This document shows positions 6,851 to 25,953 of a stretch of 25,953 nt of DNA, in pieces. Position 1 is the first letter of the stretch; every line of letters begins with the position of its first letter. Position numbers and translations under genes: made by a program. Location of the stretch: NCBI GenBank assembly GCA_024642065.1, contig JAHEBW010000033.1, forward strand, positions 1 through 25,953, written 5' to 3'. The DNA is from Polynucleobacter sp. GTDB taxonomy: Bacteria; Pseudomonadota; Gammaproteobacteria; Burkholderiales; Burkholderiaceae. Below the pieces are notes generated by a model. That model was given only the letters and a program-made list of their open reading frames with translations, made no database searches and was not told where the DNA came from.

Positions 6851-9409
6851 ATGTCAGCAACTAAAGCCAAAAAAACGATAACTAAAGCAGTTATTAAAAA
6901 AGTAGCACCTAAGGCAGCTAAATCAGCAAAGCCAGCCCCAAAGAAAGCTCCAGCTAAGGTAGTTAAGAAAGCAGCCCCAGCTGCAAAAAAGCCAGTGGCT
7001 AAGAAGCCAGCTGCTAAAGCGCCAGCTAAGACCCCTGCAAAACCAGTTAAAAAAGCTGCGCCAGTTGCTAAAAAACCTGTGGCTAAAAAGCCAGCAGCTA
7101 AGCCAACAGCTAAAGCCGCAGCAAAACCAGTTAAAAAAGCCGCACCGGTTGCTAAAAAACCAGTAGCGAAGAAGCCCGTAGCTAAAGTTCCAGCAAAACC
7201 AGTTAAAAAAGCTGCTCCGGTTGCCAAAAAACCTGAAGCAAAACCAGCTAAGCCTGTTAAGCCAGCGAAGGCAGAAAAACCAGCGAAAGCAGAAAAGCCA
7301 GTTAAAGAAGTAAAGCTAACTGCTAAAGAAATTAAAGCAGCTAAAAAAGCAGAAGAACTTGCAGCGGCAGCAGCAACAACTGAAGAAGTTGTAGAGCAGC
7401 CAAAGAAAACTCGTGGCCGCAAACCAAAACCAGTTGAGCCAGTTGATCCTAACGTTGATAACCGTACTGATCGACAAAAAGCGCGTGATCGCAAGGCGAA
7501 AGAAAAGGCATTGTTACAAGAGTTCAATGCACAAAAATTAGGTAGCGAAGAACAACAAGAATTACGTCGTGCCCGCTTGAAGCATTTGATCAAGATGGGT
7601 AAGTCACGCGGCTATTTAACGCATGGCGAAATCAATGACGTGATGTCAGATGAAATCTCTGATTCTGATTCATTAGAAACATTGATCAGCTTGTTAAGCG
7701 ACATCAGCATTACTGTTTACGAACAAGCTCCAGATGCAGAAACATTACTACTAAACGAGAACGCACCTTCTGCTACAACAGAAGAAGAGGCTGAAGAAGA
7801 AGCTGAAGCAGCTTTATCAACAGTGGATTCAGAGTTTGGTCGTACAACTGATCCAGTTCGTATGTATATGCGCGAAATGGGTACGGTTGACCTTCTAACT
7901 CGTGAAGGCGAAATCGTTATTGCTAAAAAGATCGAAGCTGGTCTAAAAGAAATGGTGATGGCGCTGTCAGCATGCCCAGTAACTATTTCTGAGATTTTAG
8001 ATAACGTTACAAAAATTGAAGAAGGAACGATGGAGATCGACGAGTTTGTCGATGGTCTAGTAGATCCTAACGCTGAAGACATCCCAATGACTGCTGTTGA
8101 GGAAGAAGAAAACCTTGACGAAGAAGAGGGTGAAGAAGACGGCGAAGAAGGCGGTGGCGGCGGTGGTGGTAACACTGCTTCAGCTAAACAGTTAGAAGAA
8201 TTAAAGCAACTTTCATTAGTGAAGTTTGCTGTGATTCGTGCGCAATTCGACAAGATGCGTAAAGCCCACGAAAAAGAAGGCTATAACTCACCAGCATACA
8301 AAAAAGCACAGGAAGCGATTCGTAATGAATTAATGGGCTTCCGCTTAACAGCGAAATCAGTTGAAAAACTTTGTGACACGATGCGCAAGCAAGTCGATCA
8401 AGTTTGGGCACTAGAGCGTGGCTTAGTTCGTATCCTTGTGGACAAAGTAGGAGTTCCACGTGGTGAAGTACTAGCTGGCTTGCCTAAGAATGCATTGAAC
8501 TTGAAGTGGACTTTATTGTTATTGAAAGACGGTAAATCTTACGCAGCTATCCTAGAGCGTAACGTGCCAGCTGTTCAAGAAATGCAACAAAAGTTAATTG
8601 ATATTCAAGATAAAGTTGTTTTGCCACTTCCAGAATTAAAAGAAGTGAACAAAAAGATGAACGAGGGTGAAAAGCGCGCTCGTGCAGCTAAACGCGAAAT
8701 GACAGTAGCCAACTTACGTTTGGTTATTTCTATTGCTAAAAAGTACACCAACCGTGGCTTGCAGTTCTTGGATTTGATCCAAGAAGGCAATATCGGCTTG
8801 ATGAAAGCAGTAGATAAGTTTGAATACCGTCGTGGTTATAAGTTCTCAACTTATGCAACATGGTGGATCCGTCAGGCTATTACGCGTTCAATCGCCGACC
8901 AAGCTCGTACGATCCGTATCCCAGTTCATATGATTGAAACAATCAACAAGATGAACCGTATCAGCCGTCAAATTCTTCAAGAGACTGGTGTTGAGCCAGA
9001 TGCAGCTACTCTTGCAGCGAAGATGGAAATTCCAGAAGACAAGATTCGCAAGATCATGAAGATCGCTAAAGAGCCTATCTCTATGGAAACTCCAATTGGC
9101 GATGATGCAGACTCAAATCTTGGTGACTTCATTGAAGACACCAATACATTGGCGCCACAAGAAGCTGCATTGCATGACTCAATGCGTGATGTAGTCAAAG
9201 ACATTCTTGATTCATTAACGCCACGTGAAGCTAAAGTTCTCAGAATGCGTTTCGGTATCGAAATGAGTACTGACCATACTTTAGAAGAAGTAGGTAAACA
9301 GTTTGACGTTACGCGCGAGCGCATTCGTCAAATAGAAGCCAAAGCTTTGCGTAAAATGCGTCATCCAAGCAGAAGCGACAAACTTAAGAGCTTCTTAGAG
9401 GAAGATTAA
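6851..9409 (+). CDS. rpoD: RNA polymerase primary sigma factor RpoD with a long Lys/Ala/Pro-rich N-terminal extension
   Basis: 852 aa. Regions 2-4 are unmistakable ([59 protein letters not shown]; [30 protein letters not shown]). Region 1.1 ([20 protein letters not shown]) only begins near residue 240. Confidence 0.97.
6863..7322 (+). repeat. Low-complexity coding repeats ([18 protein letters not shown] units) inside rpoD
   Basis: The unit aaaccagttaaaaaagc(t/c)gc(g/a/t)cc(a/g)gttgc(t/c)aaaaaacc recurs at 7040, 7124 and 7196 (periods 84 and 72 nt). It is embedded in about 460 nt of Lys/Ala/Pro codons. Confidence 0.85.
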
Positions 9410-9455
9410 TCCATAAGGGCCCTTAGCTCAGTTGGTTAGAGCAGAGGACTCATAA
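9353..9455 (+). repeat. Left 103-bp direct repeat (attL): rpoD 3' end, 7-nt spacer and 5' half of the tRNA
   Basis: Aligns without gaps to 15132-15234. The only mismatches are at 9385, 9408 and 9412. Confidence 0.95.
9417..9455 (+). pseudogene. Truncated tRNA(CAU) remnant: 5' 39 nt, ending in the anticodon loop
   Basis: GGGCCCTTAGCTCAGTTGGTTAGAGCAGAGGACTCATAA is identical to the first 39 nt of the complete tRNA at 15196. The sequence diverges immediately after CATAA. Confidence 0.95.
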
Positions 9456-9467
9456 AATTGGAGTAGA

Positions 9468-9525
9468 GGACTAATACAGTTTTGCGACATTGGTTTAAGC
9501 ATAGCAAAATTTATTAGTCCTTTTT
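9468..9525 (+). terminator. Long hairpin plus T5; candidate island-supplied terminator for rpoD read-through
   Basis: GGACTAATA (9468-9476) pairs with TATTAGTCC (9512-9520). After a bulged C77, AGTTTTGC (9478-9485) pairs with GCAAAATT (9504-9511), including one G-T pair. The loop is 18 nt, followed by TTTTT (9521-9525). Confidence 0.45.
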
Positions 9526-9751
9526 ACATCTACTTTGTTTTTACTCTGTGGCTTTTTGACTACAGCAGTTGGCATCTACAGTCGCGTAAAAAATAAAATG
9601 ACAGCACACTAGCGTGTATGTTATTACTTAAAGAACTTTTCATACAACAGCACAACGCTGACAACAACGCAAATCAAAAAAAAAAGCAGTAGGCGGCAAA
9701 GCCACGCTGTACAAGCGTCCAGAGTCATCGTGTTGGCAAGTACGCTTTAAG

Positions 9752-15131: not shown

Positions 15132-15234
15132 AAAATGCGTCATCCAAGCAGAAGCGACAAACTAAAGAGCTTCTTAGAGGAAGATTGATCAATAAGGGCC
15201 CTTAGCTCAGTTGGTTAGAGCAGAGGACTCATAA
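15132..15234 (+). repeat. Right 103-bp direct repeat (attR): island-borne copy of the rpoD 3' end, spacer and tRNA 5' half
   Basis: 100 of 103 positions are identical to 9353-9455. The sequence to its left is unrelated to rpoD. Confidence 0.95.
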
Positions 15235-15272
15235 TCCTTTGGTCCGCGGTTCAAGTCCGCGAGGGCCCACCA
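15196..15272 (+). tRNA. tRNA with CAU anticodon, most likely tRNA-Ile2 (lysidine-modified); elongator tRNA-Met not excluded
   Basis: 77-nt cloverleaf: acceptor GGGCCCT/AGGGCCC, D-arm GCTC/GAGC, anticodon stem GAGGA/TCCTT with loop CTCATAA, T-arm CGCGG-TTCAAGT-CCGCG, and an encoded CCA. It closely resembles E. coli ileX as I remember it, including C4 and C5 in the acceptor stem. Confidence 0.9.
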
Positions 15273-15280
15273 GTAGTCAC

Positions 15281-15314
15281 AAACCCCCTTCAGAAATGTT
15301 GGGGGTTTTTGTTT
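15281..15314 (+). terminator. Rho-independent terminator after the tRNA
   Basis: AAACCCCC (15281-15288), a 12-nt loop, GGGGGTTT (15301-15308), continuing TTGTTT. Confidence 0.75.
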
Positions 15315-15377
15315 ATCAGCACATATTTAATTTGCTTGATATCCTTGATGATATTTTTAAAATCTAAAACACAATAA

Positions 15378-16031
15378 ATGAATATCAACTCTGATTACAG
15401 CCAGCGAGTCGTTCTTAATCATCATGATTTAAGTTGGGTAGCTAGCCCTGAATTGGGTGTTGAAAGAAAAATGTTTGAGCGACTTGGCGATGAGGTGGCA
15501 AAGGCTACTTCTATTGTGAAATATCAAGCAGGTTCTCAATTTAAAACGCACACCCATGATTTGGGTGAAGAGATATTGGTGCTGGAGGGGGTTTTTAGCG
15601 ATGAGTCTGGCGACTACCCTGCTGGCACTTACATCATGAATCCTCCAGGATCCTCTCATGCCCCATATAGTAAGTTGGGATGTACTCTATTTGTAAAGCT
15701 CAGGCATCTAGGTCCCGATCAAGTAGAGCGAGAAATTGTGGATACAAAATCAACTGAATGGTTGCAAGGGATGGTGCCAGGTCTTCATGTCATGCCCTTA
15801 ATGCGACAGGGAACTGGGTCAACATTGGTTCGCTGGGCTCCTCAAACTTATTTCAACCCCCATAAACATTTTGGCGGTGAAGAAATATTTGTAGTTGCTG
15901 GTGTCTTTGAAGATGAACATGGACGCTATCCAGCTGGATCATGGATTAGAAGTCCTCATATGAGTTTGCATCAGCCATTCAGTAAAGAGGGTTGCACCAT
16001 CTTTGTAAAAACTGGACATCTTTTAGAGTAA
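15378..16031 (+). CDS. Bicupin protein (ChrR-like cupin domains, no anti-sigma N-domain)
   Basis: 217 aa with two internally homologous halves (THTHDLGEEILVLEGVFSDESGDYPAGTY...GCTLFVKLRHL and PHKHFGGEEIFVVAGVFEDEHGRYPAGSW...GCTIFVKTGHL). Confidence 0.75.
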   Translation: MNINSDYSQRVVLNHHDLSWVASPELGVERKMFERLGDEVAKATSIVKYQAGSQFKTHTHDLGEEILVLEGVFSDESGDYPAGTYIMNPPGSSHAPYSKLGCTLFVKLRHLGPDQVEREIVDTKSTEWLQGMVPGLHVMPLMRQGTGSTLVRWAPQTYFNPHKHFGGEEIFVVAGVFEDEHGRYPAGSWIRSPHMSLHQPFSKEGCTIFVKTGHLLE

Positions 16032-16163
16032 TTAAAAAATCTAACTGGCTGCTGGTTCAGGCTGGATGACTTAGGTGCTGTTTACCTTAAGGGATTAATT
16101 TCCTTAATTGGTGTTTAATGACTGTTATAAATTTTTAATTACAAAATATTCGGAGATTTTTAG

Positions 16164-17504
16164 ATGTCACTCATCGAGAAACTGAAGCAACGTGCCTCTG
16201 ACAACAACCCAGTTCGTGTAGCCATCATCGGCGCGGGTAAGTTTGGTTCTATGTATCTTTCACAGGCACCTAGAACGCCAGGCATTCACTTGGTGGCTAT
16301 TGCTGATTTATCTCCAACAAGAGCAAAAGAATCCCTAACTCGTGTGGGTTGGGATGAGTCTCGATATAGTGCCACCTCACTACAAGATGCAGCTAAATCA
16401 GGATCAACATTTATCACTGATGATGCGGAAAAGATTATTTCTAGCGAATATGTTGATATTGTTATCGATTCCACGGGTAACCCTGCCGCTGGTATACGTC
16501 ATGCATTACTCTGTTTTGATCATCGCAAGCACATCATCATGGTCAACGTTGAGGCAGATGTTTTAGCGGGGCCATTGCTAGCTCGTAAAGCAGCTGAAGC
16601 GGGCGTTATTTATTCAATGGCATCAGGAGACCAACCGGCCCTCATTGCAGAACTAGTTGATTGGGCTGAAACGATTGGCTTGGAAGTGGTTTGTGCAGGT
16701 AAGGGTACAAAGTACTTGCCTATCTACCATCAATCCACCCCTCAAACTGTATGGGGACATTACGGATTCTCTGAGCAACAAGTTGCTAGTGGTGATTTCA
16801 ATGCCCAAATGTTTAATTCATTTTTAGATGGCACCAAATCAGCCCTTGAGATGGCTGCTGTTGCCAATGGCTGTAATTTATTGCCGCCATCCGATGGTTT
16901 GATGTTCCCTCCATGTGGTGTAGATGATTTGCCTGACATCTTGCGACCTATTTCTGATGGAGGCATCCTGCCTCAAAAAGGAACAGTAGAAGTTGTTTCA
17001 TCGATTGAAAGAGATGGTCGTCCAGTATTCAGAGATCTGCGCTGGGGTGTCTATGTTGTGTTTGAGGCGCCAAGCAAATATGTCATGGATTGCTTTAATC
17101 AGTATGGCCTTAAAACTGATAGCACAGGTAAGTATGCAGCGATGTACAAGCCTTATCACTTAATTGGGTTAGAGCTAGGTATTTCTGTTGCAAGCATTGC
17201 AGTGCGTGGTGAAGCAACTGGTGCGACTGGTAATTGGAGTGGTGACGTAGTGGCAACTGCGAAACGCGCTTTAAAAGCAGGTGAAAAATTAGATGGTGAA
17301 GGTGGCTTTACTGTTTATGGCAAATTAATGACTGCTGCTGACTCTCTTAAATTAGAAGCTTTACCAATTGGTTTAGCTCACAACATGGTTCTTAAGAGAG
17401 ATATACCAGCAGGTCAGCCAGTTTGTTGGAGTGATGTTGATTACGATGCCACTCAACAAGCAATTCGCTTTAGAAGAGAGATGGAAGCAGTATTCCGAAA
17501 ATAA
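16164..17504 (+). CDS. NAD(P)-dependent oxidoreductase, homoserine-dehydrogenase-like with a C-terminal SAF domain (COG4091-type)
   Basis: 446 aa. It has an N-terminal Rossmann motif (VAIIGAGKFGSMYL). The overall layout matches my memory of COG4091 proteins. Confidence 0.65.
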   Translation: MSLIEKLKQRASDNNPVRVAIIGAGKFGSMYLSQAPRTPGIHLVAIADLSPTRAKESLTRVGWDESRYSATSLQDAAKSGSTFITDDAEKIISSEYVDIVIDSTGNPAAGIRHALLCFDHRKHIIMVNVEADVLAGPLLARKAAEAGVIYSMASGDQPALIAELVDWAETIGLEVVCAGKGTKYLPIYHQSTPQTVWGHYGFSEQQVASGDFNAQMFNSFLDGTKSALEMAAVANGCNLLPPSDGLMFPPCGVDDLPDILRPISDGGILPQKGTVEVVSSIERDGRPVFRDLRWGVYVVFEAPSKYVMDCFNQYGLKTDSTGKYAAMYKPYHLIGLELGISVASIAVRGEATGATGNWSGDVVATAKRALKAGEKLDGEGGFTVYGKLMTAADSLKLEALPIGLAHNMVLKRDIPAGQPVCWSDVDYDATQQAIRFRREMEAVFRK

Positions 17505-18542
17505 TTAGCCTTTTAAGGTCTCATTAAACAGAAGCTTCCAAGCAGCTTTATAAGCAACGATTTCAGCTACCTCATTGGGGAGTGTGTTGAGGAAAAACCG
17601 CAAACTTTGCGTCCACTCCCCCAGCTTTTCAATCCTGTCCCCACCAAGATCTAGTGCGGCTAAGAACCTATAGGGATTCGCAATAATTAATTTATTCCAG
17701 GCATCTTGATTGGCCCAGTAGCGAGCATGCAATTCACCACTTAATGGATATTTAGATCTTGAGTTACCGAAAGCCGTATCAATATATAAATTCTTATGCT
17801 TATCAAGTAGTGCGCTAATGTACTCTGGGGAGTAAATAGATGACCTTGAAGAGTAACGAATTTGAGCAAGATGACACCAAATGACTTTAGCGTTTGGATA
17901 TTGCGTCAGCATTTTTTCAAGAGGACCTAGAAGGCCGTCTTCAATTTCATAATGGATTTGGAATGGGACTCCGGTCTTCTGTGCAAAGGCAAAAAGTCTG
18001 TGACCTAATGGACTATCAATCGGAATATTGACATCACGATCTTCACCTCTTTGAACTTGCCGAGGAGATGGGTAGTGTCTAAATTCAAATTCACCCATTA
18101 AAGGTGTTTTTTGTAGAACAACACTTTTTTCATTTTCATCCAGAAAGCGATCGGGGGTTTTTGTCCACGCTGGATCGACGCCGCCATTCCCGGTGGGGAT
18201 GAAGTACTCAGGATATTTAATGGCTAGTTGGTCACTATCGGCATTCCAAATTTGACCTTGTTCCGCAAGTTTTTTCGGCTGAGTTAATGAAAGACACACT
18301 TGGGCAATACCTGCTCGATCCATCGCCTGTATGAAGCTTTGTGCGTCAAAAGTTAGAGGGTTGTATGAGCTTTCAATATCAATGATCGGTATCAGGCCTG
18401 ACTTCTTGATGGATTGAATGCGATTTAAATAGCCTTGCTTTGCTTTCGCAAAATCAAATTTGTACTCTTGTGACCAAGCCATATTTATATTTGTAGTTAA
18501 TAGGCTTAGTACGCTAAATTTTAGGAATGGTCTTCTTTTCAT
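17505..18542 (-). CDS. Tat-signal amidohydrolase-family (TIM-barrel metal hydrolase) protein
   Basis: The preferred start is M45 of the track ORF (ATG at 18542), giving MKRRPFLKFSVLSLL, which matches the twin-arginine RRxFLK consensus. The family call rests on general resemblance only. Its stop abuts the stop of the preceding gene. Confidence 0.55.
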   Translation of the reverse strand: MKRRPFLKFSVLSLLTTNINMAWSQEYKFDFAKAKQGYLNRIQSIKKSGLIPIIDIESSYNPLTFDAQSFIQAMDRAGIAQVCLSLTQPKKLAEQGQIWNADSDQLAIKYPEYFIPTGNGGVDPAWTKTPDRFLDENEKSVVLQKTPLMGEFEFRHYPSPRQVQRGEDRDVNIPIDSPLGHRLFAFAQKTGVPFQIHYEIEDGLLGPLEKMLTQYPNAKVIWCHLAQIRYSSRSSIYSPEYISALLDKHKNLYIDTAFGNSRSKYPLSGELHARYWANQDAWNKLIIANPYRFLAALDLGGDRIEKLGEWTQSLRFFLNTLPNEVAEIVAYKAAWKLLFNETLKG

Positions 18543-18727
18543 AGATTTATTTTGACTGAAAAATATGAGATTGAACAGATCTGCATCACGCTTCAATAAT
18601 ATGTCAGCTTCCCTAAAGTGCTTTACTAGGGTTTTTCTTATGTGGCGACCCCAAATAATCATTGATTGCGGCATTAATGACTGTTAGATTGAAGGTATCT
18701 GATTTTCTTCAAAAAGTGAGGCTTGTC

Positions 18728-19309
18728 ATGAGTTACGGTTCACCCAAATCAAAATTAGGCGGCAATTTATCTGCTCAGCAACAAAAGATGATGGAATCAT
18801 CCCAAGCAATAGGTAAGCTCACCGTTGAAAGTGCTCAGGCGATTGCCCAAATTAATCAGCAGGCCGTCCAAGACATGGCTACTGCCTTTCAAGAAAAAGT
18901 GGCTGAGCTGCTTAAAGTAAAAAATCCTCAAGAAGCATTTGATGTGGTTCACGCTCAGGTATTGCAGGATGCTGCAAAGCAAGTCACAGACTACCAAGCC
19001 AAAGTCGCTAAGGTTATGAAAGCCAATCATGATGACTTGTCTGGATTGGCAGAGTCTTTGATTCAGCAATCAAAGATGGACTTAATTCATTTTGTTAATG
19101 ATGCAACTGCTAATGCCCCTGCTGGATCAGAGCCCTATGTTTCAGTATTTAAAACAGCTTTTAGCAATGCGCTTCAGAATTTTGAGCTCATCAGAGCTAG
19201 TACAGCTGATTCTTTCGCTAATTTCGAAAAAAGCGTCAACAATATGAGTCATCTCTCAACGGCCGCTGCCCCGAAAAAGACAGCATCTAAGACTCGATCT
19301 AAAAAATAA
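18728..19309 (+). CDS. Phasin family protein (PHA granule-associated)
   Basis: 193 aa from the ATG at 18728. The Ala/Gln-rich helical sequence (ESAQAIAQINQQAVQDMATAFQEKVAELLKVKNPQEAFD) is typical of betaproteobacterial phasins. It has a short basic tail (KKTASKTRSKK). Confidence 0.7.
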   Translation: MSYGSPKSKLGGNLSAQQQKMMESSQAIGKLTVESAQAIAQINQQAVQDMATAFQEKVAELLKVKNPQEAFDVVHAQVLQDAAKQVTDYQAKVAKVMKANHDDLSGLAESLIQQSKMDLIHFVNDATANAPAGSEPYVSVFKTAFSNALQNFELIRASTADSFANFEKSVNNMSHLSTAAAPKKTASKTRSKK

Positions 19310-19330
19310 GCATTAAAGCAGTATGAAGTA

Positions 19331-19360
19331 AAAAAAGCTTGGTTTTGGCCGAGCTTTTTT
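19331..19360 (+). terminator. Rho-independent terminator after the phasin gene
   Basis: AAAAAGCTTGG, loop TTTTGG, CCGAGCTTTTT (one G-T pair), ending in a T-run. Confidence 0.6.
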
Positions 19361-19419
19361 ATTTATTATCTAATTTATAGAAACCATAAATTAGGCGCTA
19401 AAAGGCGTACACTGCAAAG

Positions 19420-20997
19420 ATGACTAATGAATTTAATCCTAGTGCAGATCTAGGTTTGCGCTATTTACGACTTTTTGAAACTGCACAAGATGGTATTTTG
19501 ATTCTTGACTATGCCACTGGAAAGATAGAAGACGCGAATCCCTTCTTAACTGATTTACTCGGGTATTCCAAAGATGAGTTAATTGGTAAAGAGCTTTGGG
19601 AGATTGGGCCTTTTATTGATAAAGAACCAGCGCTATTAGCATTTCAAGAGTTGCATGATTCAGGATACGTACGTTATGAAAATTTGCCACTAAGAAGTAA
19701 AAGTGGAAGAGTTTTAGAGGTTGAATTTGTCAGCAATGCCTATCGTGTTAATGGTGATCAGGTTATACAGTGCAATATTCGTGATATCACCGATAGAAGA
19801 CTGGCTGAAGAAGAGTTAAAAAAATCTAGATCAATGTTGGAGAAGCAAAATTGGGCTGTATTGGCATATGCCCATGCTGCTATAGCTTTATCACGCGCTG
19901 AGACCGAAGAAGTTTTGGTTGGGGATGTTTGTTGCGCTATTGTTAAAGAGGCTCCTTACGTGATTGCTTGGGTCGGTATGGCAGAGCATGACTCACAGAA
20001 AACAGTGCGGGTTGCAGGGATGGAAGGGCCATCAAGACAGTATGCAGAGGGTATACAAGTCAGTTGGGCTGAAGATTCTCCGACAGGCAAGGGACCTGTA
20101 GGTCAGTGCATACGAACTGGCACTTCAACCATTATTGAAGATACAGAAATTGATCCTCGTTTTCTTCCATGGCGTGAGCGAGCCAGATCGTATGGCATTC
20201 GGTGTGTTGTTGCTACTCCAATCCATGATGGAAACGAAACGATTGGTGCAGTAGCTGTCTATTCAAAAGTTGCTAATGCATTTACAGATAGTGAAATCCA
20301 TCTATTCGAGAACTTATCAGATGAAATTGGCTATGGCTTAAGGTCAATTCAACATCGTCAGGCGCTTGATCTTGAGATGAAGCAAAGGCAAGAAGCTCAA
20401 AATCAATTGACGCTTGCCTTGGAGTCAACGATTGCAGCCATGTCTAAAACCATGGAATGGCGTGATCCGTATACCGCAGGTCACCAAAGACGTGTCGCAG
20501 ATATAGCCGTGTTACTAGGTGAAAAATTAGGGTTGGACCAGGATCGCCTAAGCGGTCTTCATATGGCTGGAATGGTGCATGACATAGGTAAGGTGGCCAT
20601 TCCATCTGAGATTCTGACTAAGCCTACAGCTTTAACAGCGCTAGAGCGACAAATGGTTCAGGGTCATGTTGAATCGGGATACCAAATTTTGAAAGATGTT
20701 CCATTTAATTGGCCCATTGCAAATATGGTGAGGCAACACCATGAGCGTATAGATGGTTCTGGATATCCTTTGGGACTTAAGGGTGATGAGATTCTCCTTG
20801 AATCAAAAATATTGGCAGTAGCTGACACCATTGAGGCGATGGCATCTCACCGACCTTATCGACCGGCAAAAACACTTTCTGAAACATTTGGCGAGCTAGA
20901 AAGATTATCAGGCGTATTTTTTGATAAAGAGGTTGTTCAAGTCGCTTTGGATTTATTTAATGATGAATCCCTCATTAAAAAAATGCTGGAGCATTGA
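19420..20997 (+). CDS. PAS-GAF-HD-GYP protein (c-di-GMP phosphodiesterase type)
   Basis: 525 aa. It has an N-terminal PAS domain (FETAQDGILILD...NPFLTDLLGY), a central GAF-like region, and C-terminal HDIGKV and HHERIDGSGYP motifs. Confidence 0.85.
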   Translation: MTNEFNPSADLGLRYLRLFETAQDGILILDYATGKIEDANPFLTDLLGYSKDELIGKELWEIGPFIDKEPALLAFQELHDSGYVRYENLPLRSKSGRVLEVEFVSNAYRVNGDQVIQCNIRDITDRRLAEEELKKSRSMLEKQNWAVLAYAHAAIALSRAETEEVLVGDVCCAIVKEAPYVIAWVGMAEHDSQKTVRVAGMEGPSRQYAEGIQVSWAEDSPTGKGPVGQCIRTGTSTIIEDTEIDPRFLPWRERARSYGIRCVVATPIHDGNETIGAVAVYSKVANAFTDSEIHLFENLSDEIGYGLRSIQHRQALDLEMKQRQEAQNQLTLALESTIAAMSKTMEWRDPYTAGHQRRVADIAVLLGEKLGLDQDRLSGLHMAGMVHDIGKVAIPSEILTKPTALTALERQMVQGHVESGYQILKDVPFNWPIANMVRQHHERIDGSGYPLGLKGDEILLESKILAVADTIEAMASHRPYRPAKTLSETFGELERLSGVFFDKEVVQVALDLFNDESLIKKMLEH

Positions 20998-21001
20998 CCT
21001 G

Positions 21002-21829
21002 GTGAAGTATTTAGTTATCTCAATTTATGTTTTAGCTATAGGACTTCAAATCTACAGTGTTTGGTTTGCCTTCAAGCTTCTAAAAAAAGTAAAGAGCTAT
21101 GCCTACAGTATCTTTTTTATACCGCTAGGTCTTTTAATCATTATTTTTGATAAGTTGTACTACTTGATAGATTGCTGTCTATTGGGGCAGTACAGGATCC
21201 CAGAGGCTATCACTTATTTACTTATTTCATTTTTTGTATTGATTGGGGTGGTTGGGCTTCATAAACTATTCAATGTTTTGGAAGATCAAAATGAGAAATT
21301 AGAATTAATTTCTAAAACTGATCACTTAACTAAAGCTCTAAGTCGCTTAGAGATTGAGTCTCAAATTATTCAAGAAATAAAAAGAAGTGAACGCAGTAAA
21401 CATCCTATTGCATTTGTCATGCTGGATATTGATCACTTTAAAAAAGTGAATGATTCATATGGTCACGGCGTCGGTGATTTGGTTCTTCAGGCTTTATCCA
21501 AATATTGCGCATCACAGTTACGAACAGTTGATGCATTTGGTCGTGTTGGCGGTGAAGAATTCTTAATGATGTTGGCGGATACCGATGAGTCAGAAGCACT
21601 CTTAGTTGCTGAGCGCATTCGTGAGGGGGTCGCGTCTTTGGTTTGTGCAAAGGTAGCTGGTGACGAGATAAAAATTCAAATAAGTCTTGGAATATCAGTC
21701 TATGAACCAGGGTTGGACGCTCCCGAAACGCCTATTCAGTTAATGAAGAAATATTTCAGAAGGTCAGATTTAGCAATGTATAAGGCCAAGCAGTCAGGCC
21801 GAAATCAAACTAAGTGTTGGCACGAGTAG
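21002..21829 (+). CDS. Membrane-anchored diguanylate cyclase (GGDEF domain, GGEEF active site, RxxD I-site)
   Basis: Hydrophobic N-terminus, then a GGDEF domain with RTVDAFGRVGGEEF. The start is uncertain. I favour GTG 21002, which has a GGAG RBS at 20988-20991 and does not overlap the upstream gene. ATG 20957 or 20960, or the track start 20921, would overlap it by 38-77 nt. Confidence 0.85.
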   Translation: MKYLVISIYVLAIGLQIYSVWFAFKLLKKVKSYAYSIFFIPLGLLIIIFDKLYYLIDCCLLGQYRIPEAITYLLISFFVLIGVVGLHKLFNVLEDQNEKLELISKTDHLTKALSRLEIESQIIQEIKRSERSKHPIAFVMLDIDHFKKVNDSYGHGVGDLVLQALSKYCASQLRTVDAFGRVGGEEFLMMLADTDESEALLVAERIREGVASLVCAKVAGDEIKIQISLGISVYEPGLDAPETPIQLMKKYFRRSDLAMYKAKQSGRNQTKCWHE

Positions 21830-21873
21830 GACTAGTTAAAAAGCCATTTGAAAAGGCTACTTAAGGAAAGCAT

Positions 21874-23175
21874 ATGTACGTTAACGTAAAAACAAAGTTC
21901 GGATCTGCATTTCTTATTGCAGCTGCGTGGTGTATTTTTTCAATATGGGCGAGTCGGTATTGGTTTGATGATTTATCCATACTTGTTGGGCCTTGGTTGG
22001 CAGCATTCTTAATTGGATTTATTGCCATCATCCCGGGCTTCATGAACGCTTTCATGTTTTCAAGTTTATTGTTAGATAAACGCCCACTTAGAAAACATCT
22101 CGATACATATCCAGAGCTATCAATCTTGATCGCTTGCTATAACGAAGAAAAATATATAGTTCAAACAATCGAAAGCATTCTTACTCAGGCTTACCCAGCT
22201 AAGTATGAAGTAATTGTGATTGACGATGGCTCACAAGATAAAACCAGTGAGCTAGTCAAGCAAATAGCCGCTGCAGATAATCCTGTGCGACTCATTCAGC
22301 TAAATAGTAATCAAGGTAAAGCAGCTGCTTTAAATGTTGGATTGGCACAAGCGCAATATTCAAAAGTAGTCACCATCGACGCTGATTCTTATTTATTTAA
22401 GGATGCTTTAAGTAGGATTGCAGAGCGTTATGTCAATGACCCCTCTAATACAAGAGCTGTAGCAGGTACTACATTGGTGCGTAACTCACGTGATAATTGG
22501 TTAACGCAGTCACAAGAGTGGGATTACTTTCATGGCATAGCGACTGTTAAGCGTGTTCAATCGCTCAATCAAGGCACATTGGTTGCCCAGGGTTGTTTTT
22601 CGATATATGACAAAGCTGCACTAAACGAAGTGGGCGGGTGGCCTCAGGTTGTGGGAGAAGATATTGTTTTAACTTGGGCCCTTCTGCAAAAAGGGTACAG
22701 AGTTGGCTATTGTGAGGATGCTGTGATTTTTACAGTAGTCCCTAATACTCTAAGCGGTCTAATTAAACAGCGCCAACGTTGGGCAAGAGGAATGATTGAG
22801 GCGTTCAAATTTCATCCTAAGATCCTATTTACACGTCGTTTATCCACCTTCTTCATTTGGTGGGATTTGTTTTTCCCATTAATGGATATTGCTTTTACCT
22901 TTGGCTTTCTGCCAGGAATAGTTTTAGCTTTATTTGGACATTATTGGATTGTCGGTCCGATGACCTTGAGCTTATTTCCAATAGCTCTATTAATCAATTG
23001 GATTATGTTTCATACAGAAAACAAGATGTTCAAAGAGCAGGGTTTACATGTTCGACAAAACACGTTGGGGTTCCTTATTTATTTGCTCCCTTACAGCATG
23101 ATTTTGCAGCCTGCTGCAGTGTTAGGTTATTTGGTTGAGTTTTTAGGGTTGAAAAAAGTTTGGGGTACAAAATGA
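21874..23175 (+). CDS. Family 2 processive glycosyltransferase, PgaC/IcaA-like (poly-beta-1,6-GlcNAc synthase type)
   Basis: 433 aa with N- and C-terminal TM segments. Motifs: ILIACYNEE, VIDDGSQDKT, NQGKAAALN, TIDADS, GEDIVLTW and QRQRWARG (QxxRW). Block-by-block it resembles E. coli PgaC as I remember it. Confidence 0.85.
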   Translation: MYVNVKTKFGSAFLIAAAWCIFSIWASRYWFDDLSILVGPWLAAFLIGFIAIIPGFMNAFMFSSLLLDKRPLRKHLDTYPELSILIACYNEEKYIVQTIESILTQAYPAKYEVIVIDDGSQDKTSELVKQIAAADNPVRLIQLNSNQGKAAALNVGLAQAQYSKVVTIDADSYLFKDALSRIAERYVNDPSNTRAVAGTTLVRNSRDNWLTQSQEWDYFHGIATVKRVQSLNQGTLVAQGCFSIYDKAALNEVGGWPQVVGEDIVLTWALLQKGYRVGYCEDAVIFTVVPNTLSGLIKQRQRWARGMIEAFKFHPKILFTRRLSTFFIWWDLFFPLMDIAFTFGFLPGIVLALFGHYWIVGPMTLSLFPIALLINWIMFHTENKMFKEQGLHVRQNTLGFLIYLLPYSMILQPAAVLGYLVEFLGLKKVWGTK

Positions 23176-24116
23176 AATTAATAAAAAAATCTTCAATAGT
23201 GCTTTTGAGCACCTTAAGCCTGTTATCTCTTAATGTTTATGCAGAAGAACCCAAAAACCAATGGGGTATTTTGGCTCCAACTTTATTCACATCTTCTGAT
23301 AGTGATCATTTTCATGTGACTAAATTAGGCGCTGGAATATTGCCCTATTATGTAGATGGCCAGCATTACTTGGGTGTGCAAGCCACCAATACACATTACT
23401 CCAGCCTTGATTGGGCCAAGGATGGCAGTCAAGTCAGTCTTGTTCAGAGAGCTGTTAATTCCGAAACAGGTTTGGGAAGTATTGCTAGCGCAGGTGTTAG
23501 TAGTGTTTACGGCCGTGAGCTGTTAACAGCTGATATCAGTTACTCAGCGCCTATTAATTCTTCTTTATCCTATGAAGCCTTCTTCTTTAGGGATTGGGTA
23601 GAGACTAGAAATTCTTTAACTAATGGCATTAGTCACAATTATTACGGCGGAAGCTTAGAGCAAAAAATCACCAAGGATTGGACTGTCATTGGATTGTTAG
23701 CTCAACAAAAGTTTTCTGAGGACAATATCCGTAATCACGTTCGCGGCAAATTGATTTACGACGTATTGCCTGATCTTGGTGTTAATGTCCAATTAAGACA
23801 TCGTCAATATCGCGATAGTCATGATGTCACTACCAATTACTTTAATCCCAATGAATATCAAGAAAACATGATGGTTCTTGGTTGGAGAAGAAGGATTGAA
23901 CAGTGGCAATTATCTGGCTTAGCGGGATTGGGTCGTCAAAAAATCAATGATGATCCTTACACCACAACCAAATTGCTCGAGATCGAAGCAATCAGCCCTA
24001 TGTTGAATAAAGTGTTCTTAAGAGCAAAAGCAGGTTATTCTGACAGTGCTGGTTATGGCGGCCCTGACTACAGCTATAAATACTTCCAGGCGGACATTAT
24101 TTTTTCTTTTAATTGA
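23172..24116 (+). CDS. Putative outer-membrane beta-barrel protein (candidate polysaccharide export porin)
   Basis: ATG 23172 overlaps the GT2 stop (ATGA). It has a signal peptide (MKLIKKSSIVLLSTLSLLSLNVYA/EE), alternating aromatic/polar beta-strand-like composition, and a C-terminal ...IIFSFN. Confidence 0.6.
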   Translation: MKLIKKSSIVLLSTLSLLSLNVYAEEPKNQWGILAPTLFTSSDSDHFHVTKLGAGILPYYVDGQHYLGVQATNTHYSSLDWAKDGSQVSLVQRAVNSETGLGSIASAGVSSVYGRELLTADISYSAPINSSLSYEAFFFRDWVETRNSLTNGISHNYYGGSLEQKITKDWTVIGLLAQQKFSEDNIRNHVRGKLIYDVLPDLGVNVQLRHRQYRDSHDVTTNYFNPNEYQENMMVLGWRRRIEQWQLSGLAGLGRQKINDDPYTTTKLLEIEAISPMLNKVFLRAKAGYSDSAGYGGPDYSYKYFQADIIFSFN

Positions 24117-24421
24117 TGACTAAAAAAACACTACTAACCACTATTTGCCTAGTGATCTATACATTTTTTGAAATATTGGTTGTAGTGATGGATGTCGGAC
24201 TTTTAGCATTAGCATTTTGTACCCCCGTGCTCATTGGGTTTTTATTAAAGCCTGCTTTAGGTGAGACTTTTTCAATGCTCTGCTTGGTAGCGGGTGTCGC
24301 CTTGTTTGGTATTGCTTTTGTGTATCGCAAAAGAGTTCAGGTTCATCTTCAAACCAAATACCGCACCAAAGCAGAGTTAATCATAGAGTCTGTTCGCACT
24401 AGCCGCTATTTCGCCGATTAA
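24116..24421 (+). CDS. Small integral membrane protein (about 101 aa, 2-3 TM helices, basic C-tail)
   Basis: The ATG overlaps the upstream stop (TGATG). It has strongly hydrophobic segments. Its position after the GT2 and barrel genes is analogous to PgaD. Confidence 0.55.
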   Translation: MTKKTLLTTICLVIYTFFEILVVVMDVGLLALAFCTPVLIGFLLKPALGETFSMLCLVAGVALFGIAFVYRKRVQVHLQTKYRTKAELIIESVRTSRYFAD

Positions 24422-24483
24422 AGTTGGCAAACCCAATATTTAGGTATAGGATTAAAGAGTTAACTACTGTTAAGGAGTAAGTC

Positions 24484-25089
24484 ATGTCCAGTCAAAAAGA
24501 ATTCATGCAATGGCAACAAGAGCGCGCTAAAGAACTTTTTTCTTTGTCACATCTACTACTCGAAACAGCAAAAGAATTTGGCGATCATCAAGCAACTGAA
24601 ATCAAAGCAAGTATGGAGCACGCAAAGTCATTCGCAAAACATGCTGCAACCAATGATTTGGCTAAGCTTAAAGAGCTTCAAGAGAGATTTGCAGATGAGG
24701 CATCAACTAGAGTGACCGCCTATCAAAAGAAAATCAAAGGTTTACTAAAAGATCTAGAAAACGAAACTGCTGAAGAAGTAGATAAGCATATTAATAAAGC
24801 TAAATCTGCTATGGAAAGTTGGCTCAAAGAGGCTAGCAAGAATTTTCCAGAGGGTTCAGATAAGTTCACTCATGTAATGCGAGATATTGCTAATGCTGGT
24901 GACAAAGTATTAAAAGAAGGTAGAAAAATGGCTAAGCAAGCTGCTGAAGCTGCCGAGCAAGGTTTTGCTAATCTTGAAAAAATGAAGCCTGCGGCTAAGC
25001 AAGCTGCGGCCAAAAAGCCTGCAGCCAAAAAAGCGCCAGCTAAGAAGGCAGCAGCCAAGAAAACTGTTGCTAGAAAAACAAAAAGATAA
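24484..25089 (+). CDS. Phasin-like helical protein with a histone-H1-like AKKPAAKKA C-terminal tail
   Basis: 201 aa with a GGAG RBS upstream. It has a helical Lys/Glu/Ala-rich body and the tail PAAKQAAAKKPAAKKAPAKKAAAKKTVARKTKR. Confidence 0.6.
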   Translation: MSSQKEFMQWQQERAKELFSLSHLLLETAKEFGDHQATEIKASMEHAKSFAKHAATNDLAKLKELQERFADEASTRVTAYQKKIKGLLKDLENETAEEVDKHINKAKSAMESWLKEASKNFPEGSDKFTHVMRDIANAGDKVLKEGRKMAKQAAEAAEQGFANLEKMKPAAKQAAAKKPAAKKAPAKKAAAKKTVARKTKR

Positions 25090-25095
25090 GTTGCT

Positions 25096-25401
25096 GTGAA
25101 AAAGCTTGTTCTACTAATGGCTATTGCCCTTGCTGCTTGTGCTCCCATGAAAGAGCCATCTCCAGTAGCAATGGGCGATACCCATTGGACTTTGCAATTT
25201 ACATGGTTGAAAAATAACAAGCCTACCCATACGCAGACATATCAATTTATATCTCGTATGGAATGCTTTAATCAAATGTATGAGATGCAAGAAGCTGCTA
25301 AAAAAGTAAAAAACCAGATAGGTTCTGGTTTGTGCTTTAAAGCTTTTGCTGAAGGTCAAGAGCGAACAAGCAATGACCTTCTTGCCCGGTATAGCAAATA
25401 A
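25096..25401 (+). CDS. Small lipoprotein (101 aa)
   Basis: GTG start. Signal peptide with lipobox: MKKLVLLMAIALAAC. Confidence 0.5.
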   Translation: MKKLVLLMAIALAACAPMKEPSPVAMGDTHWTLQFTWLKNNKPTHTQTYQFISRMECFNQMYEMQEAAKKVKNQIGSGLCFKAFAEGQERTSNDLLARYSK

Positions 25402-25452
25402 TACTCAGGCTAAGCGCCAGCCCATATCAATTAAAGCTCAATCAAAGCCCAA

Positions 25453-25953
25453 TCAAAGATCGTTCTTAGGTTTTACAAGATCTTTTCTAGAGTAGCCTAG
25501 CTTTTCTGCTTTTGAGAGTAATGTGGCTTCAAGTGCTGGGCTTAATGACTTGTCTCTGGCTAATATCCAGAAATACTTGCCTGATGGCTCACCAATCAAA
25601 ACCCAAGAATAGTCACTTGCTAAATCCAGAACCCAGTAGTCGCCATAAAAAGGTCTAAAGAAAGATACTTTTAGTTTGGCATTGTTGGAGCCTTCTACAA
25701 CTTTAGCGATGCCAATAGCTTCTTGTTTCTTATTGGCTTTATAGCAAGTATTCAGTACTTTGACGTGACCATCATCTCTTAGGCTGTATTCAGCGGTTAC
25801 TGTTTGGCAATCTCCATCCTCAAACCAGTTGGGTAATCGGTAAATCTCGTACCATTTACCTAAATAGCGATTGAGATCAACTGAGCTAACTGTTTTGACG
25901 GCATCGTTAGAGACTCTGTAAACCGGTTGATTGGCGCATGCAGCAAGAAGTGC
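25453..25953 (-). CDS. blc: Bacterial lipocalin (outer-membrane lipoprotein Blc), N-terminus outside window
   Basis: Not in the supplied ORF track. My own translation of the minus strand from 25953 gives ALLAACANQPVY...DLNRYLGKWYEIYRLPNWFE...DYWVLDL...YSWVLIGEPSGKYFWILAR...KPKNDL, with the stop at 25453-25455. It has a lipobox and the lipocalin GxWYEI signature. Confidence 0.8.
   Translation of the reverse strand, partial: ALLAACANQPVYRVSNDAVKTVSSVDLNRYLGKWYEIYRLPNWFEDGDCQTVTAEYSLRDDGHVKVLNTCYKANKKQEAIGIAKVVEGSNNAKLKVSFFRPFYGDYWVLDLASDYSWVLIGEPSGKYFWILARDKSLSPALEATLLSKAEKLGYSRKDLVKPKNDL

Follow-up and report, generated by a model that had tools for sequence, protein, structure and literature searches.

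The window analysed here, a 25,953-nucleotide stretch of Polynucleobacter sp. DNA, contains an intact rpoD gene, a 5.8-kb segment of low GC content (9456-15234; GC 0.31-0.39 versus 0.41-0.51 in its flanks) encoding a tyrosine integrase (int) and several small open reading frames (ORFs), and, spanning the far end of that segment, a tRNA gene with anticodon CAU. The features to which the argument refers are, in order of position:

6851-9409, + strand: host rpoD, 852 aa, intact, with Pfam sigma-70 regions 1.1 to 4
9353-9455, + strand: attL identity block, consisting of the host rpoD tail, a 7-nt spacer and a displaced tRNA 5' fragment (9417-9455); its allele is that of the empty site in contig L084
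9449-9455, + strand: attL anticodon-loop heptamer CTCATAA, the putative crossover (overlap) segment, with its attR partner at 15228-15234
9459-9532, + strand: long hairpin with a U-run, candidate terminator or attenuator (MFE -24.3 kcal/mol, z = -4.65)
9476-9491, + strand: ACAGTT-N5-ACATT, candidate arm-type or accessory site for the integrase on the P' side, 21 nt inward of the left end
9618-10837, + strand: tyrosine integrase gene, frameshifted (Pfam PF00589, PF14659)
11174-11761, + strand: ORF of 195 aa, no family match
11866-12534, - strand: second small tyrosine recombinase, 222 aa, catalytic domain only (PF00589, 2.5e-31)
13536-13976, + strand: cargo ORF, DUF6641
13978-14244, - strand: cargo ORF, 88 aa
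14244-14468, - strand: cargo ORF, DUF1413
14520-14855, + strand: cargo ORF, 111 aa
15061-15105, + strand: conserved right-end block, ACAGTTAGAACATT (15061-15074) and TTGGAC-16 nt-TACAAT (15074-15101)
15132-15234, + strand: attR identity block, consisting of the island-borne rpoD tail and spacer (15132-15195) and the tRNA 5' half (15196-15234)
15196-15272, + strand: tRNA(CAU), Ile2 type (ARAGORN, Rfam), very probably an island 5' half joined to the host 3' half
15287-15315, + strand: host intrinsic terminator after the tRNA (terminator scan)

The two identity blocks form a direct repeat of 103 nt, found by a repeat search of the window (9353-9455 and 15132-15234; three mismatches, 97% identity), whose copies are spaced 5779 nt apart; by blastn the regions upstream and downstream of int match one another with E = 5.9e-46. 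The repeat comprises the final 57 nt of rpoD including its stop codon (9353-9409), the spacer (9410-9416) and tRNA positions 1-39, and its right edge is the last base of the anticodon loop, i.e. the end of the heptamer in each copy. The fragment at 9417-9455 matches tRNA positions 1-39 at 100%, all three mismatches being upstream of the tRNA: CTT/CTA (Leu, 9385/15164) and TAA/TGA (stop, 9408/15187) in rpoD, and C/A in the spacer (9412/15191). The two rpoD differences, both silent, are just as the first-pass annotation had given them. The same two-ended architecture is present in the isolate Polynucleobacter sp. 73C-SIWE (L003) on a 1.2-Mb contig, and the junction regions are matched by the independent contigs L001, L002 and L086, so the repeat is not an artefact of assembly.

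The tRNA at 15196-15272 is the only one in the window (ARAGORN, + strand, anticodon CAT; Rfam, 72 bits), and its cloverleaf fold has a z score of -4.2. Its best matches in E. coli are 84-86% identical over the full length and are annotated as tRNA-Ile in all 5426 genomes; the body of the tRNA is of the Ile2 type, that is, like the CAU-bearing ileX and ileY as opposed to the initiator and elongator tRNA-Met. The pairs C4-G69, C5-G68 and G27-U43, which we take to be TilS determinants, can be read from its sequence. One E. coli tRNA-Ile copy adjoins dnaG-rpoD, as in the window, and in E. coli L096 (NZ_JALDNN010000001.1) the neighbourhood is dnaG-rpoD-(mug)-tRNA-Ile(CAU), with remnants of mobile elements just downstream of the tRNA; the linkage of rpoD with tRNA-Ile2 is therefore common to E. 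coli and these betaproteobacteria. The window rpoD has an N-terminal extension of ~230 aa (6851-7550), rich in Ala, Lys and Pro, part of which is encoded by 84-nt tandem repeats (6932-7242).

The integrase ORF read from an internal ATG at 9752 has 361 aa, while intact homologs have 404-406 aa, with ~45 extra N-terminal residues; the closest named homologs are from Polynucleobacter. The reading frame is lost in a run of ten adenines (9676-9685), which is nine adenines long in the independent contig L002, and at which P0001, an intact 406-aa homolog with 99% identity, reads AAAATAAAA. This difference could be a slippage-prone inactivation, phase variation or a sequencing error. Since the local int is frameshifted, this copy is possibly no longer self-mobile, and, as both the A10 and the A9 versions are out of frame, present-day activity of the window copy is doubtful. 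A lambda-type (heterobivalent) system would comprise an N-terminal arm-binding domain, arm-type sites flanking the attP core and an excisionase; family searches recognised no excisionase among the island ORFs. Neither tblastn of the integrase against a phage collection (threshold 1e-5) nor phmmer against PDB gave a match, and a scan of IMG/VR did not find the excised circle (attL/attP junction).

The 222-aa recombinase has weak matches to DNA invertases and Xer recombinases. Elsewhere in the intergenic regions of the island, a palindromic motif of ~28 nt (GGTTTA..AAAAGCAG..TTTTT) occurs in six copies in both orientations, including two back-to-back pairs (coordinates 11751-11824, 12579-12603, 13452-13509 and 15036-15062); among 96 loci it was found only inside the related islands L002, L005, L006, L026 and L063. 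Inverted pairs of the motif (11748-11824 and 13444-13509) flank the 222-aa recombinase gene, and together these may constitute a nested or invertible module. Identification of the palindromic repeats as integron-like attC sites or as integrase arm sites was set aside, the repeats lying deep inside the island, between convergent genes.

Evidence on the uninterrupted site comes from metagenome contigs, which were scanned for an rpoD end joined to a complete tRNA. Of the 14 matches, 13 have an intact rpoD followed directly by the complete tRNA, and the remaining match (L086) is the right end of another island. The near-conspecific contig L084 has no island and reads rpoD, 7 nt, complete tRNA; it is 98.3% identical to the window on the left flank, up to 9455, and 96.3% identical over 16128-25953, i.e. 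9.8 kb of the right flank. By a TIGER-style check, an uninterrupted attB is present in related genomes, namely in L084 and 12 other contigs. The empty-site tRNA has the sequence of that in the window, 12 full-length copies being identical and a truncated one, in L094, matching over the part present. A chimeric origin of the window tRNA would thus leave the RNA sequence unchanged.

The three mismatches are informative as to which DNA belongs to the host. At all of them attL has the L084 (host) allele and attR a foreign one, which implies that the exchange occurred to the right of 15191 and, in turn, that at least 15132-15191 is island DNA. The mismatches confine the crossover to 15192-15234, and we infer that strand exchange took place inside the 7-nt anticodon loop; the 5' half of the working tRNA is then very probably island-derived. 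The proposal of the first-pass annotation that the island carries this 5' half together with the rpoD tail is thus borne out by the empty site in L084, by the host and foreign alleles and by the position at which the block ends in related islands (below). Natural rpoD alleles match the copied fragment at 15164, 15187 and 15191: the TGA stop and the spacer tcaataa occur in the uninterrupted rpoD of L082, L088, L089 and L093, and CTA is also present in L089 and L093. These occurrences support the earlier suggestion that the tail was captured from a functional rpoD of a related lineage; it is equally possible that the allele took the reverse route and passed from an island into the host when copies of the repeat recombined.

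Taken together, the observations make it very likely that 9456-15234 is an integrative island, the tyrosine integrase of which recombined attP with the anticodon loop of the host tRNA-Ile2(CAU) gene. Homology between attP and target would have extended 5' from the crossover, over the tRNA 5' half and 64 nt upstream, unlike in ~96% of mapped tRNA islands. Integration would displace the host 5' half, which would be left attached to rpoD at 9417-9455, and would rebuild the intact gene at 15196-15272 from an island 5' half and the host 3' half. The tRNA would in this way be severed from rpoD by 5.8 kb, and its transcription would now have to start within the island; TTGGAC-16 nt-TACAAT in the right-end block is the best candidate for the promoter used, with read-through from the ORF at 14520-14855 as an alternative.

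How the tRNA was expressed before integration can be judged from the native arrangement. The tRNA begins 7 nt after rpoD, a terminator follows it, and a promoter scan found no promoter-like site in the rpoD 3' end (9100-9416), such that co-transcription is the simplest reading; the native tRNA is probably co-transcribed with rpoD. Within the island, the scan found no sigma-70-like site on the + strand in 14800-15195. TTGGAC-16 nt-TACAAT has 8 of 12 consensus positions, which is below the scan threshold, and since nothing upstream of the tRNA was flagged, the island promoter is a candidate on grounds of conservation. The right-end block that contains it is kept in six Ile2-type islands despite differing surroundings, being directly before the tRNA in L004-L006 and before the rpoD tail in the window, L003 and L086. 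The block may instead, or additionally, be a site for binding of a protein, either the integrase or an accessory protein.

Stronger promoter-like sequences are present in related islands. The copied block of L081 (Lys-type) has TTGACA-17-GATAAT (11/12), and that of L077 (also Lys-type) has TTGACG-17-GATAAT (10/12) and begins just upstream of this promoter; in the Phe-type islands a TATAAT is located 8-12 nt before the tRNA, L022 having its own copy in otherwise unrelated sequence. Several related islands therefore appear, as judged from these motifs, to carry a tRNA promoter in the copied block, whereas the window has only a weak, conserved candidate.

The left-end hairpin, for which 0 of 200 shuffled sequences fold as well, is located between the displaced tRNA fragment and int, and a canonical terminator is present at the equivalent place in L057, L060 and L064; the hairpin probably stops rpoD transcripts before they reach int. 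The pattern ACAGTY-N3-6-ACATT is matched just twice in the window, once at either end of the island, with 0.22 matches expected by chance, and the left-end motif recurs at the equivalent position in related loci of reverse polarity.

Alternatively, the rebuilt tRNA might be expressed from, or with the help of, the copied rpoD tail, for instance through an internal promoter or a processing signal, in which case an island promoter would not be needed. The window, L003 and L086 do carry the tail, and a full promoter is part of the copied block in the Lys-type islands; in the sister islands L004, L005 and L006, however, the right-end block stands directly before the tRNA with no intervening rpoD tail, which is thus dispensable, and the empty result of the promoter scan over 9100-9416 likewise argues against such a signal. 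In a comparison of 10 rpoD sequences, the third-codon-position diversity is 0.07-0.13 in the last 20 codons, the final 3 of which had been fixed by the search pattern, versus ~0.3 (range 0.16-0.54) upstream, and the drop coincides with the island-copied segment (window 9353-9409, last 19 codons). Low diversity over this segment suggests extra constraint, possibly from an embedded signal, but could also reflect homogenisation by gene conversion with island copies. Overall, a role of the rpoD tail as the source of tRNA expression is considered unlikely, and transcription from a site elsewhere in the island, such as the right-end block, is preferred.

The wider distribution of the arrangement was surveyed by aligning 26 integrase homologs, which led to 79 loci from species-representative genomes in which tRNA genes and fragments were mapped. 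Reverse polarity, i.e. a tRNA 5' fragment (positions 1-38/39) that precedes int by 160-290 nt and shares its strand, is found in the window and in 21 of these loci. The far end, where visible, lies 5-11 kb downstream and has either an intact tRNA or, in tandem islands, additional 5' fragments. The tRNA genes occupied in reverse polarity are:

tRNA-Ile2: L003-L006, in addition to the window
tRNA-Phe: L007-L010, L012, L022-L024, L026, L067
a second CAU tRNA (CAU-b): L027, L057, L060, L064
tRNA-Lys UUU: L077
tRNA-Lys CUU: L078, L081

The hosts of the reverse islands are Polynucleobacter, Methylophilaceae and Comamonadaceae. By contrast, L058, L076, L028, L036, L038, L039, L041, L047 and L052 have the classical polarity, with 3' fragments downstream of int and the intact tRNA upstream, and L074 has a classical layout with the intact tRNA just upstream of int. 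The window has no 3' tRNA fragment of the kind left by 3'-restoring elements. In the window and its reverse relatives the identity block extends as far as the final base of the anticodon loop, which places them in the anticodon-loop sublocation, whereas in classical relatives it starts at the first base of the loop; the two polarities thus have in common the 7-nt loop, and in both int is located just to the right of the crossover on the strand of the tRNA.

Reverse polarity is a clade trait. In a neighbour-joining tree the bootstrap value is 100 for the reverse Ile2 clade and 89 for a larger reverse clade to which L027 also belongs. The grouping of the reverse CAU-b clade with L074, of classical layout, likewise has 100, as does the Lys group, in which both polarities occur. 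From these groups it follows that polarity differs between well-supported sister groups at least three times. Related islands have recently been transferred between species, L007 and L008 having int regions that are 99.9% identical and host flanks that are 82.9% identical. A subclade comprising L013-L018 and L030 has a typical reverse right end beside an intact tRNA-Phe and no 5' fragment next to int; in its members the conserved sequence begins ~100 nt upstream of int (..CGCCCAAATCCTAATCTGAA..), with different genes leftward in each genome.

Some of the surveyed tRNA genes have additional complexity. In two Polynucleobacter genomes, L004 (15534-15822) and L006, a group I intron (Rfam RF00028, 53 bits, L004 15566-15775) divides the tRNA-Ile2 gene after position 37 and interrupts the integrase-targeted loop, and two intron-less 5' fragments and islands are stacked upstream of the split gene. 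In L016, L004, L022, L077 and L081 reverse islands are stacked on the 5' side of the tRNA, while its 3' side has fragments of the classical 3' kind (positions 32-76 or 55-76), making the same tRNA gene a two-sided hotspot.

These comparisons bear on whether the integrase was responsible for the insertion at all. The island could have been placed or exchanged by homologous recombination in its flanks (replacement-type), with the integrase as a passenger and the repeat as a by-product. Recombination hotspots are known to flank genomic islands in Polynucleobacter (PMC5644125), the window int is frameshifted, and the gene after the tRNA is a cupin in the window and a short-chain dehydrogenase in L084, with no tRNA fragment beside it. 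Flank recombination does not, however, predict a boundary at an identical tRNA position in at least 22 loci, at five tRNA genes and in several bacterial families; the motifs conserved at both island ends and the near-identical int regions in hosts with 83%-identical flanks are further arguments against it, and we regard it as very improbable. The cupin gene (15378-16031, ChrR-type) directly follows the tRNA terminator, and its position, at which L084 differs, looks like a small replacement-type variable spot in its own right.

An origin of the repeat by local duplication or through faulty assembly, with no attP x attB recombination, would fit the fact that short-read contigs break at it (L001 starts at 15233 and L002 at 9428), i.e. 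that it confuses assemblers; searches with the exact cupin and integrase proteins likewise yielded only short contigs that end at the repeat. Such an origin is effectively refuted, and has a negligible probability, given the empty-site contigs (above all near-conspecific L084, with both flanks collinear), the integrase between the copies, the sorting of the three mismatches into host and foreign alleles, and the recurrence of the two-ended architecture both in isolates and, at four further tRNA genes, in many related loci.

Integrase-mediated recombination at the anticodon loop is hence the preferred account of the locus, and a broader proposal can be built on it. It is conceivable, though rather doubtful at this stage, that the half of the tRNA restored by the element is an evolvable trait, which has flipped at least three times in the family, and that 5'-restoring lineages seize transcription of the tRNA with a promoter of their own. 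If so, the supply of a probably single-copy essential tRNA-Ile2, formerly co-transcribed with rpoD, would become dependent on the island, and int would come to lie behind a host promoter with an attenuating hairpin; an addiction-like or regulatory effect would then be possible. The first-pass annotation had argued that, if this tRNA-Ile2(CAU) gene is the only one, an essential tRNA now depends on island-borne upstream sequence. The upstream DNA is indeed island-borne and the tRNA is of the Ile2 type, while the dependence itself is putative.

The 3' bias of tRNA-targeting elements is usually accounted for by the host promoter and the 5' part of the gene being left untouched. The present family would constitute a natural counter-example with many members, in which a host tRNA receives its promoter, or at any rate its upstream context, from the element; in the native Ile2-type arrangement the tRNA, so close behind rpoD, would have no promoter of its own. 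As opposite polarities occur in sister lineages at one and the same loop, the family is suited to asking what sets polarity, and it would also allow any fitness or addiction effect of island-controlled tRNA expression to be tested in streamlined freshwater bacteria. At a practical level, island finders that expect 3' fragments beside the integrase-distal end would mis-map such islands.

With respect to known systems, the tabulation in Islander is the most direct comparison. Of its 3919 islands, 3760 have a 3' fragment and 159 a 5' fragment (PMC4383910, Table 1), in agreement with the statement in the first-pass annotation that most elements carry the 3' part of the tRNA gene; the 159 cases also mean that the reverse layout was already on record and is less novel than that annotation implied. 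The Islander configuration filter accepts a 5' fragment upstream or a 3' fragment downstream at 2-200 kb (PMC4383910). In the window, the intact tDNA (15196-15272) and the fragment (9417-9455), both on the + strand, bracket the element, a tyrosine integrase, though frameshifted, lies between them, and the 5' fragment is upstream, with a length within the 2-200 kb range. The Islander 5'-fragment islands thus share with the window the position of the fragment upstream of the intact tDNA, its orientation and the intervening integrase; they differ in being known only as a count in a database table. In the literature searched, no integrase clade with consistent 5' polarity was found, nor promoters in the copied block, nor this freshwater betaproteobacterial family. 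It therefore appears that the integrase family, its consistent polarity, its putatively promoter-bearing blocks and the repeated differences in polarity between sister groups are undescribed in that literature, while the island in the window is one more case of a known, rare configuration.

Classical islands and prophages of the anticodon-loop sublocation class (Williams 2002, as summarised in 10.1101/2020.11.02.365908 and PMC4383910) resemble the window island in having a tyrosine integrase, a block bounded by the 7-nt loop, restoration of a functional tRNA, a displaced fragment at the far end of the island and tandem arrays at one tRNA. They supply the 3' half and keep the host promoter, whereas here the 5' half and upstream DNA are supplied. 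The arg2A-VII islands of Klebsiella pneumoniae, with clade I.d integrases, are reported to insert upstream of the tRNA, unlike all others surveyed (10.1101/2020.11.02.365908), but they use the D-loop sublocation and are from another host group. Elements with dusA-specific integrases (PMC4482086) enter their target gene at its 5' end, and the gene 5' part and the upstream region likewise become element-borne; the target there is protein-coding and the integrase family a different one.

For the relationship between transcription and integrase expression, the closest parallel is ICEKp1, for which there is experimental evidence that in the integrated state the host tRNA promoter drives int through an attenuating stem-loop leader, and that in the excised circle a promoter at the far end does so (PMC13023037). 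The order in the window, from rpoD through the hairpin at 9459-9532 to int, with a promoter-like block at the far end, can be likened to this geometry at the level of sequence. In ICEKp1, however, the polarity is classical, an intact tRNA-Asn being located upstream of int, such that the geometry of the window is its mirror image.
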